Shown: positions 3,718 to 63,568 of the stretch, in pieces
Layout of the letters: the number at the start of each line of letters is the position of its first letter
Numbering within the stretch: position 1 is the first letter of the stretch
DNA from: a virus
Lineage: Duplodnaviria; Heunggongvirae; Uroviricota; Caudoviricetes
Strand: one strand, 5' to 3'
Virus record (IMG/VR): IMGVR_UViG_3300026549_000001
Span: 186,569-250,568 of that record
Length of the DNA stretch: 64,000 bases
Notes under the pieces: generated by a model
The model's input: the letters and a program-made list of their open reading frames with translations, nothing else
What the model was told of the DNA's origin: nothing
Database searches by the model: none
Translations under genes and position numbers: made by a program

Positions 3718-3746
3718 ATTATAACATCATATAATATACTTGTCAA
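3718..3746 (-). promoter_or_regulatory. sigma-A-type promoter TTGACA-17-TATAAT (minus) upstream of dockerin gene
   Basis: tgtcaa 3741-3746; attata 3718-3723. Confidence 0.5.
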
Positions 3747-7282: not shown

Positions 7283-7347
7283 TCATTAAGATATTTACAT
7301 TATACTAAAGTTAGTTAGTATTGTCAATAGAAAAGCGTTATATATTT

Positions 7348-15598: not shown

Positions 15599-15709
15599 AA
15601 AATGCTCCTATTGAAGTGTTACATACTAACCGTGGTGTTACGGTTATTTCCTATATGTTTCTATGTATATATAAATATTATAGCATATCCTTGAGCGTTT
15701 GTCAAGTAT

Positions 15710-40951: not shown

Positions 40952-41084
40952 ATTATTTCCCCTTTAAGTTGTATGTGCAACGCATAACCTTAAATGCTTC
41001 GCAATCGCATTATAGCACACGAAGCAAAGATTGTCAATAGATAGAAAACAATCTTCTTTCTCTCATTATTAAATAATCTCTTTT

Positions 41085-42407
41085 TTAGTACACGATTACA
41101 GGTAGCCCTTTGTAAATATTATTAAAGATTTTTTCTGCATTAGCAAAAGGAGTATTTATACACCCATGAGAACCATTAGTTTTATAGATATTACCGCCAA
41201 AATAATATCTCCAAGTAGCATCGTGGATAGCAATTCCTGTCCAAGTAAGGCGCATAAAATATGAACAATCTGATGTACCATAAGAACCTTTCATTGTGTA
41301 ATCTTTTGACATCTGAAGGATTTGAAATAGTCCTTTTGGGGTGTTCATATTTGCCGAAACATTTCCTGTAACAATTGGAGTGTCTACTATACACTTGCCG
41401 TTTTTATATAACCACATCCTTTGGTTATCTATACTAATTTCAATATAAGAATTTCCTATGTCGGATTTACCAAAAGAGAATCCTTTGGATATAAACGGAA
41501 CTTCAATTACACCGCTTTCCGCATTATGAATATGCTTATAAATCTTTTCAGACAATGCATCTATGTCTATTTCCCATCCGAAAATAGTATTATCAAATGG
41601 TTTGACTTTTATCTCTGTATTATAAGAAGTCTTAAAAGTTCTTGTAGTTCCTTTAGTGTTATATTGTTTAAGAGTTTCTATATATTCTTGTATAGAAGTA
41701 AAATCAATTCCATCTAATGTATATGTTCTCAATATAATCTCTTGTGGTATAGTTATAATATATTCTTCGGAAAACTGTAAATTAATGGTCGTATCTAACT
41801 GATGATTTATCTTTTCAACTTTATCAATTAAGTTGCCTGTTGTAATTTGCGGCAGAATATAACAGTCTGTAATGTCCATATTATAACAGGATTGTTGTAA
41901 ATTATCTAATACAGATAATTTGAATTTATGTTTATCTATCTGTGTACCATACTTTTCTGCTATTACAACATATTTTCCATCTACGAAATCAATATAAGCA
42001 TCTTCTGAAACAACATTCGTATTCAGTTGATTATACACATTTTCAATAAACGAATTAAAAGAATTGTGGTCTAATTCAAGGTGAGGTATTCTAACAATAT
42101 GTTGAGGAATGAGAAAGTAGTTAAACCAATAGTAAGGATTATATTCTTCTATTTGGTTATCCATAGAATCATATAGTCCACACTCTTTAAAAGATTTAGT
42201 TATTCCATTAATGGTTATAGCTCTATGTGCTGTTTCATTTTCAAAATCGGCAATAACTTCTTGTGGGGTTAGATTAGTTACTTTCCTATCATTAATATAA
42301 AAATTAGGGGGATATACTTTTGTATATTTTTGTACCATAATAAAATATAAAGCTATACAAAGAGTTACAATACTTATTAAGATTATTACTACTTTTTTCA
42401 TTCTCAT
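41085..42407 (-). CDS. membrane-anchored L,D-transpeptidase (YkuD) domain protein
   Basis: N-terminal TM; C-terminal H...GSHGCINTP catalytic motif. Confidence 0.6.
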   Translation of the reverse strand: MRMKKVVIILISIVTLCIALYFIMVQKYTKVYPPNFYINDRKVTNLTPQEVIADFENETAHRAITINGITKSFKECGLYDSMDNQIEEYNPYYWFNYFLIPQHIVRIPHLELDHNSFNSFIENVYNQLNTNVVSEDAYIDFVDGKYVVIAEKYGTQIDKHKFKLSVLDNLQQSCYNMDITDCYILPQITTGNLIDKVEKINHQLDTTINLQFSEEYIITIPQEIILRTYTLDGIDFTSIQEYIETLKQYNTKGTTRTFKTSYNTEIKVKPFDNTIFGWEIDIDALSEKIYKHIHNAESGVIEVPFISKGFSFGKSDIGNSYIEISIDNQRMWLYKNGKCIVDTPIVTGNVSANMNTPKGLFQILQMSKDYTMKGSYGTSDCSYFMRLTWTGIAIHDATWRYYFGGNIYKTNGSHGCINTPFANAEKIFNNIYKGLPVIVY

Positions 42408-42428: not shown

Positions 42429-43382
42429 TTATCTATATACAATCATTTCACTAATTTGAATATATCTTTCTGATACGGTATGTCCTACATTTAAGTAATG
42501 TTCTACTCGTTCTCCATTCCTTGTCATATATAAGGAATCAAATATGAATATATCATTATTAGAGATGCTTCTATTTTTATCAACAGCAACCCAATGATGT
42601 GGATTAGGTCTATATGGTGTTCTCACATGGAGTAATAAAGAATATCCATCATTTAGATATTGTATAATCTCATTTCGTATATTACTGTGAGTATAATTAT
42701 CAGCTAAATTATCATTATTTATAGTTGCCGTTTCCCCAATTATATTGAACTGTGGTCTACCAATATATTCCAAATTATCAAATACATTAGCGGCTCTTGA
42801 AAAATAAATACTACCATTAGAAGATAACCCAGATGGAGAGAGGTTGCGTAGTCGCTCAACCATTACAGGAGGAGTAAAGTTTTGAGCATCTATTAAATGT
42901 TTTTGTATACATATTTTACCCCAAGAGATAATAGCACAACCATAATTGGCAAAAGTATTACCCCCTCCTAATTCTATTTCTCCCCAATTATAATTAGTAG
43001 TGCTTGACTGCGCCCAACTTTGCCAAGATGTATCTTCATAAGTTTCGGGTACTACTATAGTGATATATTGAGCAGATACATACCCAATAGTATTATTATA
43101 CTTAATTTGATACCACCCATTTTGTGTACCAACTAAAACATCTACCAATGTGCCGTAAGTTAAAACATCTATAATGGGATAATCTGTTGAAGCTCCAGTT
43201 CTAAAATTTAGTCGAGCAACATTTACTGTTCCTTGTAGTGGTGTTACAATTCTCTTTACAGGAGAATCTTTTGGAGCGGCTAATGCTGTTCCTGTTATAC
43301 ACATACAAATCAATATAGTCGTTATAATAAGTAATAATTTCTTTTTCATTCTGTAATTCCTTCTTGTATGGAAATAGACCAC
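42429..43382 (-). CDS. secreted SH3b-domain protein with C-terminal Cys/His peptidase-like domain
   Basis: signal peptide; SH3b LNFRTGASTDYPIIDVLTYGTLVDVL...NGWYQIKYNNTIGYVSAQYI; NYGCAIISWG...HHWVAV. Confidence 0.5.
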   Translation of the reverse strand: MVYFHTRRNYRMKKKLLLIITTILICMCITGTALAAPKDSPVKRIVTPLQGTVNVARLNFRTGASTDYPIIDVLTYGTLVDVLVGTQNGWYQIKYNNTIGYVSAQYITIVVPETYEDTSWQSWAQSSTTNYNWGEIELGGGNTFANYGCAIISWGKICIQKHLIDAQNFTPPVMVERLRNLSPSGLSSNGSIYFSRAANVFDNLEYIGRPQFNIIGETATINNDNLADNYTHSNIRNEIIQYLNDGYSLLLHVRTPYRPNPHHWVAVDKNRSISNNDIFIFDSLYMTRNGERVEHYLNVGHTVSERYIQISEMIVYR

Positions 43383-45667: not shown

Positions 45668-45696
45668 ATTATATCATAAAATGATTTATCTGTCAA
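45668..45696 (-). promoter_or_regulatory. sigma-A-type promoter TTGACA-17-TATAAT (minus)
   Basis: tgtcaa 45691-45696; attata 45668-45673. Confidence 0.5.
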
Positions 45697-49573: not shown

Positions 49574-49662
49574 TGCCGTTTGATGGGACTCGAACCCACA
49601 TCGCATCAGGAGGTATTTCACCATAAAACTACTGGTGCATTTTGCCATTAAACTACAAACGA
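49574..49662 (-). ncRNA. tRNA-like element (canonical T-arm and acceptor, aberrant 9-nt anticodon loop and long variable region)
   Basis: GTGGG-TTCGAGT-CCCAT T-arm; acceptor TCGTTTG/CAAACGG; anticodon region CACCA-GTAGTTTTA-TGGTG; lies in its own promoter-to-terminator unit. Confidence 0.35.
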
Positions 49663-49767
49663 CACATTATGAGGACGGTTTTTAAGGTTTACGATTGTTG
49701 TCAACAGTTCCACGGCGAAAGTGCGGTAAGAAGAACCGTCCGAGAAAACTTCTCACCTGATGTTTAT

Positions 49768-49796
49768 ATTATAACAAAGCTGAACTTATTTGTCAA
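49768..49796 (-). promoter_or_regulatory. sigma-A-type promoter TTGACA-17-TATAAT (minus) driving the tRNA-like ncRNA
   Basis: tgtcaa 49791-49796; attata 49768-49773. Confidence 0.5.
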
Positions 49797-49816: not shown

Positions 49817-51913
49817 TTATGAGAACCTTAACCATTGTATAAAGGTAAAGTTATTAAGGTCTGAACTATTAACATATCCAACATTAGAAGTATTGTTTCC
49901 AATTTGAACATAATAATATTTGCCTATCTTTCCATATATAATAAGGAAAGAATTTTTTGGAATGGTTCTTATTATATTTCCATAATGAGTAGGTTTATTA
50001 TACATTTTTGCATTAACTTTTGTATATGCCATACCTGTCCAACCTATACCAATTGCTGAACCAACAGATAATAAATCTCCTCTAATATAACCAACATATT
50101 GATTATACTTACAATGTAACCATCCATCTTTTTCCCCAATGACTTCTACTCTTTCTCCATATCTTACAGATGTGATATGAATAGAATTTGTAGTTGCATC
50201 TGCTCTCATTCTTGCAGAACTAACCGTAATTGTTCCCTCTGCCGTAGAATTTGGAGGATTAAATGTTGGAGATGGGGTATTTGTTATAATAGGAGTTGGA
50301 GTAGGCGTGTTTGTTGGTTTTGGTGTAGGTGTTGGAGTATTTGTCGGTCTTGGCGTGACAGTCGGAGTAGCAGTCGGAATTGGTGTAGGACTGTTTGTAG
50401 GTCTTGGCGTGGCGGTTGGTCTTGGGGTATTTGTAGGTTTGGGAGTTGCCGTAGGATTAGGCGTATTGGTAGGGGTAGGAGTTGGAATAGGTGCTGTTGT
50501 GAAATTAGGTTTACTCTCTGTAATATTAGTAATATCTAACTTATCATAATAGAAAGCCAAAATATCTGTATAAGAAGCTCCACCTTTAGCCCTCTGTTCT
50601 GCTCCATATTGGCTCATACCTAAACCATGTCCCCATCTACAATAAAGAACCTCATAACCATTATCTATTTCTCTACCCCAATAGATTTTAAATGGTTTTG
50701 TAAATATACCAACATCTTTTAATTTACTTGCTTTTATATCAACTACATATTCCGTATCGGTATCAGTTAATACAGTAAGTCGAAGCAAGGATAAATCTCT
50801 AACACTACCATTATGGTTTGGTGTGTGCATTTCTGCATTTATTATTGTAGCAATATTTATTTCTGATAGATTATAAATATTCTTTATATCATCTTCAATA
50901 AGGGTTTTAAATTGTTTATTTTCTATTGGAACATTATATTCAATAGGTAATGTTTCTATATAGCGTTCAGGGTAATACATTAAATCAATATCATCTAATT
51001 TAGTAGAAAAAAGATGGTCTTGATATGTAGAACCCCATACCCAAGAAGGAATGGCGGTTTCTCCACCATTAGTAGCGGCGTAATAAGATAATACAGTATT
51101 ACCATTATAAGTCAGAACTTTACCACAAACATTCAAACAAGCATTTAAGCATTTGGAATAGTTAGGTAAATATCCCCTATACCCTTGATAATTCATTGAA
51201 TCCGTAATTTGATATTCTGTAGTATTAGAGGGGAAGGAGAAAGCATAAGTTTTTGCCGCAATAGCCTGTGCCATTAATGCTTGGATATTACAACTCTCAC
51301 TCATTTCATAAGGAACTACACCATATAAATAAAAAGCTGTTGGAAGGTGATTTATTAATCTAACCTTATTATCCTTGTTATCTATTTTAATATCGCCCAA
51401 ATAGTATCTACCATCATTAAATTCAAAATCAGTAGTATTTAATTTAACTATTTGACTTGTTGCTTGATATGCAATATTTTTAAGGGTACAAGATTTATTA
51501 GCAAATACAGTAGCGTTATTATGAACTATTTTTATGCCATTGTTCATTATGCTGATATTCAATAGCTGTGGATTTGATAATGAACCCTGTATTACATAAT
51601 TATTCTCTTCTATGTAATAAGTACCTAAACAAGTTAAGGTTAGAGAAGAAACATCTCCAACAGTTAATAGTACATCTATATTGCTATAGTCTGATATTAG
51701 TTTTGTTGTTCCCTTTGTTAATGGTCTTTCTGAATTTTGTGATTTTGCAAAATTATCTTTGGCTGTGACTGTTTCATTAGTTGGAAGTTGGATAAATTCA
51801 TATTTGGGAATTTTATATTCGTCCACTTGCGTTCTATTTACAGTCGCAATAGTTGAAGTAGAAGTAAGCCCTAATATGCCTACCATAAAAAGTGAAATTA
51901 ATTTGTTAATCAT
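49817..51913 (-). CDS. secreted SpoIID/LytB-domain protein with Pro/Thr-rich linker and two C-terminal SH3b domains
   Basis: signal peptide; SpoIID motif [13 protein letters not shown]; PT repeats ([17 protein letters not shown]...); SH3b-like [19 protein letters not shown]. Confidence 0.7.
50270..50480. repeat. low-complexity coding repeat (Pro/Thr linker) within the SpoIID-like gene
   Basis: imperfect ggtgt/ggagt repeats on the plus strand. Confidence 0.6.
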
Positions 51914-52165: not shown

Positions 52166-52194
52166 TTGACAAAGAAACAATATTACTGTATAAT
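52166..52194 (+). promoter_or_regulatory. perfect sigma-A consensus promoter TTGACA-17-TATAAT (plus)
   Basis: TTGACA 52166-52171; TATAAT 52189-52194. Confidence 0.6.
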
Positions 52195-55509: not shown

Positions 55510-55646
55510 ACTATTCTCTCCTGTTTTTTAATTCCTTTACATTATACATCTTTTAATTCTATTTGTCAATCTCTTTTTAACAAAATATTAAAAAATTGTG
55601 CTAATGGGTGGACTCTAACCATCTGAAATACATTAGCACAAAATTA

Positions 55647-58008: not shown

Positions 58009-58048
58009 TGGTGAGTCTGGTGGGATTTGAACCCACGATGCCTTGATT
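58009..58048 (-). other. 3' half of a split tRNA gene (anticodon-stem 3' strand TCAAG, T-arm GTGGG-TTCAAAT-CCCAC, acceptor CAGACTC, A, CCA)
   Basis: matches the 5' half at 58533..58569 (acceptor GAGTCTG); the two halves are separated by ~490 bp. Confidence 0.55.
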
Positions 58049-58071
58049 TTTTCGTCCTTCAGAAATGACAA

Positions 58072-58497
58072 TTACAAAGTTTGAATTACATCCATCAACT
58101 TAAAATCTTTTGCAAATAGTCCGTTTTTAGGTTGTCCATCTAACGGCTCAATCAGTCTTAATCTTTGCGCTCTTTTTCCACATACCCCTAATGGGATTAA
58201 ATAACATTGATTATTATGTATGGTTGCAAAAAAGTCAACATCATTTTGTGAATAAGAAAGATTTAAAGTTCCTTTGGTGTTTGTATGGCTTGTGCTTGTG
58301 GGAAAATCAAAATACTTACCGTTTTCTCTTTCTCTACAAGTCTTTACTTGAATCTTATACAGATGATTATTTATATCTGCAATAAAATCGTATCGTGAAC
58401 TTTGTACTAATGGCTTTGAAAGTAAAACTCCTAATTTTAAAAACTCCAAAGCTACTTCTTGTTCTGTTATTTCTCCAATAAAATGACTACTTAACAT
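58072..58497 (-). CDS. small PD-(D/E)xK-like protein encoded inside the split tRNA gene (candidate intron/homing endonuclease)
   Basis: 141 aa; YDFIADINNHLYKIQVKT (D...D/E-x-K-like); ORF flanked by 10-bp inverted repeat TGACAATTAC/GTAATTGTCA. Confidence 0.45.
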   Translation of the reverse strand: MLSSHFIGEITEQEVALEFLKLGVLLSKPLVQSSRYDFIADINNHLYKIQVKTCRERENGKYFDFPTSTSHTNTKGTLNLSYSQNDVDFFATIHNNQCYLIPLGVCGKRAQRLRLIEPLDGQPKNGLFAKDFKLMDVIQTL

Positions 58498-58532
58498 TTA
58501 ACCTTTCAAGTAATTGTCAATCTACTTGAGTC

Positions 58533-58569
58533 GAAAAAGTCAAGTGCCTTACCGCTTGGCTACAGACTC
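58533..58569 (-). other. 5' half of the split tRNA gene (acceptor GAGTCTG, D-arm GCC-AAGCGGTAA-GGC, anticodon-stem CTTGA + CTTTT...)
   Basis: Gln/Lys-type D-arm; candidate anticodon loop CUUUUAA (Lys UUU) if halves are joined; identity uncertain. Confidence 0.5.
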
Positions 58570-60546: not shown

Positions 60547-60625
60547 TGGAGCGGGTAAAGGGATTTGAACCCTCACCTTCGGTTTGGAAGACCGATATGC
60601 TAAACCAATTGAACACTATACCCGC
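60547..60625 (-). tRNA. tRNA-Gly (TCC)
   Basis: acceptor GCGGGTA/TACCCGC; anticodon arm TCGGT-CTTCCAA-ACCGA; CCA; large D-loop. Confidence 0.7.
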
Positions 60626-60823: not shown

Positions 60824-60901
60824 CGGCTCGGATGGGAATCGAACCCATATTACAAGCGTGATATGCTTGTGTATTTTCCAACCATTTTATACTACCGAGT
60901 C
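60824..60901 (-). tRNA. atypical tRNA-like gene (anticodon loop AUAUCAC, i.e. AUC; 14-nt D-loop; no encoded CCA; A2-C71) - possible pseudogene
   Basis: T-arm ATGGG-TTCGATT-CCCAT; acceptor GACTCGG/CCGAGCC. Confidence 0.35.
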
Positions 60902-60971: not shown

Positions 60972-61352
60972 TGGTAGGGGCGGTGGGACTCGAACCCACA
61001 CGGTTAATAACCAACGGATTTTCTTACCACTATAGTTTTCACTACCACTTGAAGTGTTTGTGGTCTGGACTTAATCTTTACCCACTTATTTCAGTTGGGG
61101 TAGGGTATGTAAAGTCTCTACACACTTATTTTTCAATAATTGGCACGGTATTCCCATTGGGAAAGGGTTCACCGTTTAGTACCCATTCAGCATAAGTATT
61201 CCTACTTATCTGCTCCTGTCTACCAAACAAAATTATTTGGCTCTAATGGTATGCCCAATTTCACTTCCATTAGAATTCAAGGATATGTTGCATAACATTC
61301 CTCTCTTTAGATAATCTTGAAGTCCGCTGCGTCTGCCATTACGCCACGCCCC
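60972..61352 (-). tRNA. tRNA-Leu (UAA) interrupted by a 296-nt group-I-type intron (exons 61319..61352 and 60972..61022; intron 61023..61318)
   Basis: 5' exon GGGGGCG-TG-GCG-TAATGGCAGA-CGC-A-GCGGA-CUU ends in U; 3' exon AAAA-TCCGT-(long variable arm)-GTGGG-TTCGAGT-CCCAC-CGCCCCT-A-CCA; intron ends in G; insertion between nt 34/35 of the anticodon, as in known tRNA-Leu(UAA) group I introns. Confidence 0.7.
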
Positions 61353-61403
61353 CATATTTTTTACCTTCAATATTTATTTGTCAAAGAGCGTTATCGTGGT
61401 ATT

Positions 61404-61432
61404 ATTATACCAAATGATTTTTTGTTTGTCAA
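61404..61432 (-). promoter_or_regulatory. perfect sigma-A consensus promoter TTGACA-17-TATAAT (minus) ~50 nt upstream of tRNA-Leu(UAA)
   Basis: tgtcaa 61427-61432; attata 61404-61409. Confidence 0.6.
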
Positions 61433-63412: not shown

Positions 63413-63568
63413 ACAATACTATACGGAGGAGTCAGCGAGAGAGCCACCCTCAACTCTCTTCGGGGGTTGTCCTTCCCCCTACCGACAAATAGATTATAAC
63501 ATATCCTTTTTGGATTGTCAACACTTTTCTGAATTAAAAAATAATATATTGTTCTCTTTTTAGATTGA

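Follow-up and report, generated by a model that had tools for sequence, protein, structure and literature searches.

The tRNA-Leu(UAA) gene of this large phage is split in its anticodon, and the sequence that interrupts it, between positions 34 and 35, is very probably an IC3-like group I intron, of the kind found in bacterial tRNA genes. The assignment comes from analysis of the whole 64,000-nt stretch of DNA available to us, hereafter the window. The intron ribozyme has homologues in both viral and bacterial collections, its P1 loop holds the remains of a homing-endonuclease gene, and related phages carry the same tRNA gene uninterrupted.

Run over the whole window with its intron option, ARAGORN reports c[60972,61353] tRNA-Leu(taa) i(35,297). 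Exon 1, in full GGGGGCGUGGCGUAAUGGCAGACGCAGCGGACUU, begins GGGGGCG and ends GCGGACUU, and exon 2 begins AAAAUCCGU and ends CGCCCCUACCA. Joined, they form by ARAGORN an 85-nt class II tRNA-Leu(UAA) with a long variable arm, with A73 and CCA encoded in exon 2 behind the 3' strand of the acceptor, and with perfect acceptor, anticodon and T stems. That the two halves when joined give a class II tRNA-Leu had been claimed in an earlier, sequence-only reading of this DNA, and the calls on the joined exons and on the window itself both bear it out. Its coordinates hold for exon 2 (60972..61022), whereas exon 1, which it placed at 61319..61352, was off by one base and truly runs from 61353 to 61320; the intron, given there as 296 nt, is 297 nt long (61319..61023). 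The junction lies between U34 and A35, such that a U precedes the 5' splice site and a G is the last base of the intron, and here direct reading and the i(35,297) call agree with what had been proposed. When zero to four bases of the 7-nt loop are assigned to the 5' side (k=0 to 4), CUU|AAAA is by reading the sole register that has both U-1 and an intron-final G. Other splice registers, which give the anticodons GAA or UCA, were rejected; they lose the omega-G or U-1 and misfit a class II tRNA. Neither default ARAGORN nor the Rfam tRNA model finds a continuous tRNA overlapping the split-gene region, the rival that the sequence-only reading had itself raised.

To place the insert among known ribozymes we used a covariance model, R1, made from a MAFFT alignment of 16 short phage tRNA-Leu introns, with the window left out. 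In the 64 kb R1 has one match only, at 61228..61023, which covers 203 of 203 model positions with 120 bits (E 8.9e-28) and stops exactly at the proposed omega-G. The score is partly circular, because the training set was gathered with a motif that the window shares; the match still spans all 203 positions. The group I-type intron postulated from the sequence has in this way its P1 to P9 core recognised by a family model trained without it. Within the 16-intron alignment, 96.8% of the cells are paired over P2-P9 and the P3/P7 pseudoknot, versus 30-42% in controls in which the 3' partners are slid by 1-3 columns. Both sides have changed in 29 of the 52 pairs, and the covariation score is 0.458 as against 0.05-0.11 in the same controls. 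The covarying helices are P2, P3, P5, P6, P8 and P9 along with one pair of P7. Given that P3 and one P7 pair covary, the P3/P7 pseudoknot is supported.

A search with the Rfam group I model (RF00028), which had been put forward as the way to check the core, is negative, whereas the family-specific R1 nonetheless finds that core. On the window RF00028 has no match at the gathering score, a 701-base slice yields none at E<=10 either, and the model likewise gives nothing on the phage loci L001-L004 (for L001 and L002 the search was limited to E<=1). As a positive control, the same model detects L125, L163 and L188 at 53.6-60.9 bits and L145 at 49.8 bits, calling a 'Group I catalytic intron' in Bartonella (60.9 bits), Scytonema (57.6), Nostoc (53.6) and a Bacteroidetes tRNA-Leu(UAA) gene (49.8). 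R1 scores these bacterial tRNA introns at 127-155 bits over the same stretches that RF00028 calls. Because the two models share matches, the window intron is tied to group I introns certified by Rfam. At E<=10 RF00028 misses L149 (45% G+C), though this locus is the best match of R1, which gives 155-194 bits for L145 and L149 and 166-194 bits for L149 and L002 (L002, 166). It also misses the window (40% G+C) at E<=10, while of the more G+C-rich bacterial members tested most are detected. Since RF00028 matches relatives of this intron and misses other A+T-rich ones, we take its negative result for a failure of sensitivity on A+T-rich phage members. The seed sequences of RF00028 are non-bacterial, and a dedicated bacterial tRNA-intron model finds 20% more (10.1101/2020.01.27.920355).

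The helices of the intron are listed in Table 1. P1 is short, four base pairs with the wobble pair included: in the fold CUUC pairs with GGAG, and U-1 (U34, 61320) sits in a G.U wobble. The guide occupies the position homologous to that of the family, 39-40 nt before P4. P7 has a bulged nucleotide beside a G-C pair and, as read from the sequence, agrees with the invariant columns of the family; a P7 motif of the type G(A)GACUU / AAGUCC is the guanosine-binding site of group I introns. In P4 the second pair is A-U in the window versus U-A in 16 of 16 family members, both sides having changed. The inventory of helices is compatible with subgroup IC3, in which P2 is simple and P2.1 and P5abc are lacking: there is one P2, P5 is short, and both P2 and P9 end in GNRA loops. 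Receptor motifs are absent from P8 and the P5 loop. Most relatives have a CCUAAG...UAUGG receptor motif in P8 and a U[G/U]UAAA motif in the P5 loop, probably the docking sites for the P2 and P9 loops, and the window has neither. Its P2 loop is GGAA where the family has GAAA, its J3/4 departs from the AAA of the family, and about 5 of the 46 modelled pairs are non-standard.

Table 1. Positions in the window of the split tRNA-Leu(UAA) gene, its proposed intron and the other features discussed.
Feature	Position	Strand	Description
Exon 1	61353..61320 (34 nt)	minus	acceptor 5' strand, D arm, GCGGA, C32 U33 U34
Proposed intron	61319..61023 (297 nt)	minus	starts CAAG, ends GUAAG; very probably group I, IC3-like architecture
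Exon 2	61022..60972 (51 nt)	minus	A35 A36 A37 A38, UCCGU, long variable arm, T arm
P1 5' strand	61322..61319	minus	exon C-3 U-2 U-1 and intron C+1; 5' splice site 61320|61319
Expanded P1 loop	61318..61217	minus	about 100 nt, three hairpins (fold); decayed homing-endonuclease gene
N-terminal HNH remnant	61285..61235 (intron 35-85)	minus	88% DNA identity to L276 over 51 nt
C-terminal HNH remnant, 34-aa ORF	61230..61126	minus	overlaps the ribozyme from guide sequence to P6
Internal guide sequence GGAG (P1 3' strand)	61216..61213	minus	R1 match, fold
P2 hairpin	61212..61188	minus	10 bp, one bulge, GGAA tetraloop
P3	61184..61180 and 61107..61103	minus	GGGUA / UACCC
P3 5' strand, J3/4 and P4-P5-P4'	61184..61145	minus	R1 match
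P4	61175..61170 and 61150..61145	minus	ACGGUG / UACCGU
P5	within 61167..61153	minus	CCC / GGG
P6 hairpin, GAAA loop	61142..61123	minus	R1 match
P7	61118..61112 and 61072..61067	minus	G(A)GACUU / AAGUCC, bulged A
P7 5' strand and P3 3' strand	61118..61103	minus	with P7 3' strand make the P3/P7 pseudoknot
P8 hairpin	61101..61080	minus	R1 match
J8/7 and P7 3' strand (AAGUCC)	61079..61067	minus	R1 match
P9 domain	61063..61023; helices 61063..61027	minus	CCAC/GUGG closes two hairpins, one with GAAA loop
Proposed omega-G	61023	minus	R1 alignment ends there
Second split tRNA, Lys(UUU)-like	58567..58009	minus	484-nt insert in anticodon loop
PD-(D/E)XK endonuclease ORF, 141 aa	58072-58497	minus	Pfam PDDEXK_5 79 bits; PDB 2OST E 1.8e-8
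Sigma-70-type promoter	61432..61404	minus	TTGACA, 17-nt spacer, TG-extended TATAAT; 12/12 matches
Perfect promoter sites 1-6	965-993, 3718-3746, 7299-7327, 15677-15705, 41009-41037, 45668-45696		
Perfect promoter sites 7-11	49768-49796, 52166-52194, 55541-55569, 61404-61432, 63493-63521		
Cell-wall enzyme ORFs	41085-42407, 42429-43382, 49817-51913		YkuD L,D-transpeptidase with peptidoglycan-binding domain; SH3_3; SpoIID with SH3_3

The P1 loop of the window has some 95-100 nt extra compared with most relatives, in which it measures 8-12 nt, such that the guide begins at intron position 104 rather than 8-12 nt into the intron. The source of this extra sequence is seen in L276, a single contig found by a metagenome scan with the P4-P5 sequence of the window. 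Its tRNA-Leu(UAA) gene contains a 636-nt intron encoding an intact 166-aa protein that matches Pfam HNH_3 (34.8 bits; cutoff 24.8), in a reading frame that runs from the P1 loop via the guide, P2, P3, P4 and P5 into P6. Two pieces of this frame are found in the window. The N-terminal one translates as TYP*ILMEVKLGIPLEP, with an in-frame stop, versus SYPKILMEKKLGRPLEP in L276, and the C-terminal one, which lies in a different frame, reads LFGRQEQISRNTYAEWVLNGEPFPNGNTVP versus LYGKREQDRRNSIAECELNGEPFPNGNTVP. Because both pieces match the L276 frame, the P1-loop insert is a decayed homing-endonuclease gene. An intact homing endonuclease is absent from the window intron, which holds two out-of-frame fragments and an internal stop and has lost L276 residues 47-130, comprising the HNH motif and the zinc ribbon. 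By reading, P2, P3 and P7 differ between the window and L276 on both sides (P3 GGGUA/UACCC in the window versus GUGAG/CUCAC in L276; P7 GACU/AGUC versus GAAU/AUUC), which argues that the ribozyme was kept under selection while the endonuclease decayed. The window and L276 thereby form a matched pair, decayed versus intact endonuclease, alongside related phages that have no intron. Two other interpretations of this region were discarded. The sequence AAAUUGGGC at 61258..61250, together with a hairpin and UAGAC, had been considered as a second or ancestral guide-plus-P2 module, and the GGAA hairpin as an extra P2.1. Both were dropped because the stretch is what remains of the HNH gene where it encoded K-L-G, with 88% identity to L276; in addition, R1 and the fold agree on GGAG, at the standard spacing of the family, as the guide.

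Relatives of the intron are numerous. [quoted passage not shown] Among the matches listed, the commonest host is tRNA-Leu(UAA) split after nucleotide 34, with at least 47 viral and at least 32 bacterial loci; viral Leu(UAA) introns at this same site are mostly 196-212 nt long, and other hosts include Arg(UCU), Met, Asn and further tRNAs. By blastn against known phages, the 3' half of the insert matches LR756501, Atu_ph07, a Microcoleus phage (within a 286-nt 'tRNA-Arg') and Kolpuevirus. The first of these, a 735-kb uncultured megaphage (LR756501.1, L001), has an unannotated tRNA-Leu(UAA) split after U34 by a 205-nt intron, by reading and by the ARAGORN intron option. Agrobacterium phage Atu_ph07 (MF403008.1 ~112890-113251, L002) has an equally unannotated one, split after U34 by 278 nt; a 'hypothetical protein' CDS, AUZ94936.1, is annotated in that genome across the 3' end of the intron and exon 2. 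In the crAss-like Kolpuevirus 'frurule' (OQ198718.1, L004) the intron, which contains a GIY-YIG gene and scores 71 bits with R1, lies inside the DnaB helicase gene. Given that it shares the 3' domain of the window almost base for base, tRNA genes and protein-coding phage genes host the same ribozyme lineage.

When viral contigs are scanned for exact matches to the P1-loop insert and to either exon, no near-identical relative appears, and in none of 13 related viral contigs, chosen as encoding homologues of the neighbouring deoxyribosyltransferase gene, does an R1 intron lie beside that homologue. Three related jumbo phages (L247, L248 and L254) have an uninterrupted tRNA-Leu(UAA) that is colinear with the joined exons of the window across the junction, and the anticodon arm GGACUUAAAAUCCGU is identical in the uninterrupted Leu(UAA) genes of related jumbo phages. 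Since these three genes are uninterrupted, the intron is only sporadically present in related phages, which fits an element that was once mobile. In the same three contigs the tRNA cluster around the deoxyribosyltransferase homologue also contains tRNAs with the anticodon CUA, of the amber-suppressor type (3569-3645 in L247/L248, 3014-3107 in L254), which hints at stop-codon recoding in that lineage; no tRNA with this anticodon was seen in the window.

The phage is large and A+T-rich, and megablast of 24 kb against known phages returns tRNA-sized matches only, so that this collection lacks the phage itself. The window encodes topoisomerase II subunits, fragments of a multisubunit RNA polymerase, DnaB and RecA; among ten of its mid-sized ORFs there is no RNA ligase or RtcB. 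Its SpoIID, YkuD and SH3_3 cell-wall enzymes suggest a host among the Bacillota, Gram-positive and possibly sporulating. From 49.5 to 63 kb the minus strand contains about 20 tRNA genes, the other Leu tRNAs of the phage having the anticodons CAA and UAG. In this region the Rfam tRNA model also matches two places on the minus strand that ARAGORN omits: 60824-60901 (46 bits), where the D loop is too large and the anticodon loop, AUAUCAC, is unusual, and 60553-60623 (44 bits), with the loop CUUCCAA (anticodon UCC). For a 90-nt tRNA-like sequence at 49574-49663 (minus), which scores only 37.5 bits with Rfam, default ARAGORN gives Asn(GUU), and ARAGORN with the intron option gives Lys(UUU) containing a 2-nt 'intron'. 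The perfect consensus promoter that had been noticed upstream of the split gene does match at 12 of 12 consensus positions and has the TG extension as well; tRNA position 1 follows about 50 nt downstream. The window has 11 perfect TTGACA-N17-TATAAT sites where 0.04 would be expected; 10 lie on the minus (coding) strand, and in several a TG stands one base before TATAAT, a pattern which suggests that the region relies heavily on a host polymerase of the sigma-70 type.

From these features we infer self-splicing, use of the promoter and a functional mature tRNA, along the following lines. Host RNA polymerase would initiate at the consensus promoter (61432..61404), and in the precursor C-U-U and the first intron base would pair with GGAG (61216..61213) to form P1, placing U34 in the G.U wobble. 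Free guanosine bound in P7 would attack after U34 (61320|61319). The terminal G (61023) would then occupy the guanosine site, allowing the 3'-OH of U34 to attack after G61023 and to ligate U34 to A35, and RNase P and 3' trimming would yield the 85-nt tRNA. By analogy with the Anabaena intron, the anticodon stem formed by the exons probably helps to align the splice sites, and a relic as large and structured as that in the P1 loop might make folding slower. As to its past, the intron had an HNH homing-endonuclease gene in the P1 loop, which made it mobile at the DNA level; of this gene deletions and a stop codon have left the relic of about 100 nt, the ribozyme core being kept.

The window contains a second split tRNA, Lys(UUU)-like, which is a stranger object than the tRNA-Leu split by a group I intron. 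Its insert is almost wholly coding, with about 57 nt non-coding, and the encoded endonuclease matches PDB 2OST, named by the tool only 'Putative endonuclease', which we take to be I-Ssp6803I. Neither R1 nor Rfam finds a ribozyme or group I core in the insert at 58009..58567, and no G precedes a sensible 3' junction there. Of 18 related viral loci, at least 12 share this layout, the tRNAs being Lys-, Thr- and Pro-like. The anticodon stem of every such locus continues as a covarying helix of 17-30 bp with G.U pairs, where the anticodon is base-paired to the final bases of the insert; the junctions that this implies lie on either side of the anticodon, with a 3-nt 3' stagger. Split tRNAs of this endonuclease type would be either spliced in a protein-dependent manner or dead genes, and they may be the 'enigmatic' tRNA introns of Lak phages.

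Given that this second insert has no ribozyme, a protein-dependent route may exist in the phage or its host, and one may ask whether the tRNA-Leu intron, too, is removed by an RNA endonuclease and a ligase rather than by its own catalysis. We hold this to be highly improbable, as a full covarying group I core is conserved, which is unexpected if that core is dispensable. Still less can be said for the absence of any intron, the two tRNA halves and the 297 nt having come together by chance or by recombination, for example as fragments around an unrelated spacer. Standard tRNA finders and Rfam, which call nothing here, would fit such an accident; however, the two halves pair with each other to form the acceptor and anticodon stems, the junction recurs in dozens of homologous tRNA-Leu(UAA) genes that are likewise split, and the intron model ends exactly at that junction. 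Because this independent model matches here at E 9e-28 and nowhere else in the window, the split is not due to chance, and we give that explanation next to no credence.

Is the intron, then, still active? It may be a true group I relic that splices poorly or not at all, this copy of tRNA-Leu(UAA) being effectively a pseudogene heading for loss. In favour of this are the decayed endonuclease gene, a weak P1, the missing receptor-like motifs of P8 and the P5 loop, a J3/4 that is not AAA, and the presence of two further Leu tRNAs (CAA, UAG) in the phage. We nevertheless find loss of function unlikely. The core is complete at 120 bits, the intact exons form acceptor, anticodon and T stems without a mismatch, and P2, P3, P4 and P7 differ from those of relatives by changes on both sides, not by disruptions. 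Moreover, the gene has a perfect promoter of its own, and UUA is likely to be a heavily used codon in such an A+T-rich genome. An intact tRNA gene with a group I intron that would excise itself remains the reading we favour.

The case in the window is cleanly classifiable, and dozens of its relatives are unannotated, including those in the cultured Agrobacterium phage Atu_ph07 and in the 735-kb megaphage. Because default ARAGORN and Rfam silently miss such split genes, the tRNA repertoires of phages are under-counted, and annotation pipelines are likely to under-call the A+T-rich members of the intron family. We consider it possible, if rather doubtful, that phage tRNA clusters are a large overlooked reservoir of tRNA group I introns and of the homing endonucleases that go with them, and a vehicle for both. 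Consistent with this idea, the core motif is found in at least 120 contigs of the viral and at least 120 of the bacterial collection, relatives vary in the presence of the intron and the state of the endonuclease, and A+T-rich phage members escape the generic Rfam model. Such a reservoir, if it exists, would account for the scattered occurrence of near-identical intron cores in distant bacterial phyla, and a retained intron might in that case aid the phage, for instance by destroying the target site of endonucleases encoded in the introns of co-infecting phages.

The closest known counterpart is the tRNA-Leu(UAA) intron of Nostoc/Anabaena PCC 7120 ('Leu.3Ug', 10.1101/2020.01.27.920355), with which the window intron shares the host gene, the CUU/intron/AAAA site, U-1 and the terminal G, as well as an intact exon anticodon stem and a P1-P9 layout without large peripheral domains. 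The match to the classical tRNA-Leu(UAA) intron asserted in the sequence-only reading is upheld in these respects, the site 34/35, U-1 and omega-G agreeing with CUU/a...g/AAAA (10.1101/2020.01.27.920355); the likeness to the cyanobacterial and plastid trnL intron is one of site, terminal bases and layout. Unlike its counterpart, the window intron lies in a phage tRNA cluster and not in a bacterial or plastid genome, is A+T-rich, is missed by Rfam and contains an HNH relic. The cyanobacterial loci that we retrieved, called Met(cat) (L133, L161 and L163), Leu(caa) (L188) and Ser(cga) (L194), have the same exon/intron geometry and appear to be tRNA-fMet introns. Together with the introns of tRNA-Arg(CCU) in Bartonella/Agrobacterium and of tRNA-Ile in Azoarcus (IC3), cyanobacterial tRNA-fMet introns share the same core and the 3' domain motif; bacterial introns of such other isotypes score 127-137 bits with R1 and are called group I by RF00028, whereas their host tRNA and position of insertion in the loop differ from those of the window. 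Bacteroidota tRNA-Leu(UAA) introns (PMC13011429) occupy the same gene and site, with R1 scores of 155-194 bits for L145 and L149, and some have HNH homing endonucleases, as in L276; they are chromosomal, however, and in the window the endonuclease is only a relic.

Among phages, the introns of T4 td and nrdB, of the SPO1 DNA polymerase gene and of Kolpuevirus DnaB are self-splicing group I introns, often with homing endonucleases, but unlike that of the window they reside in protein-coding genes, as did all phage introns known at the time of a 2014 review (PMC3984707). A full-text literature search found no paper joining phage tRNA, tRNA intron and group I. The tRNA introns of Lak megaphages, to their authors' knowledge the first in phage tRNAs, were left unclassified and termed 'enigmatic' (PMC6784885, 2019). 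Like the window intron they lie in phage tRNA genes, and they are set apart from it by their description, whereas the window intron is clearly of group I. The type of intron is a classical, textbook one, and its setting in a phage tRNA gene is rarely described.
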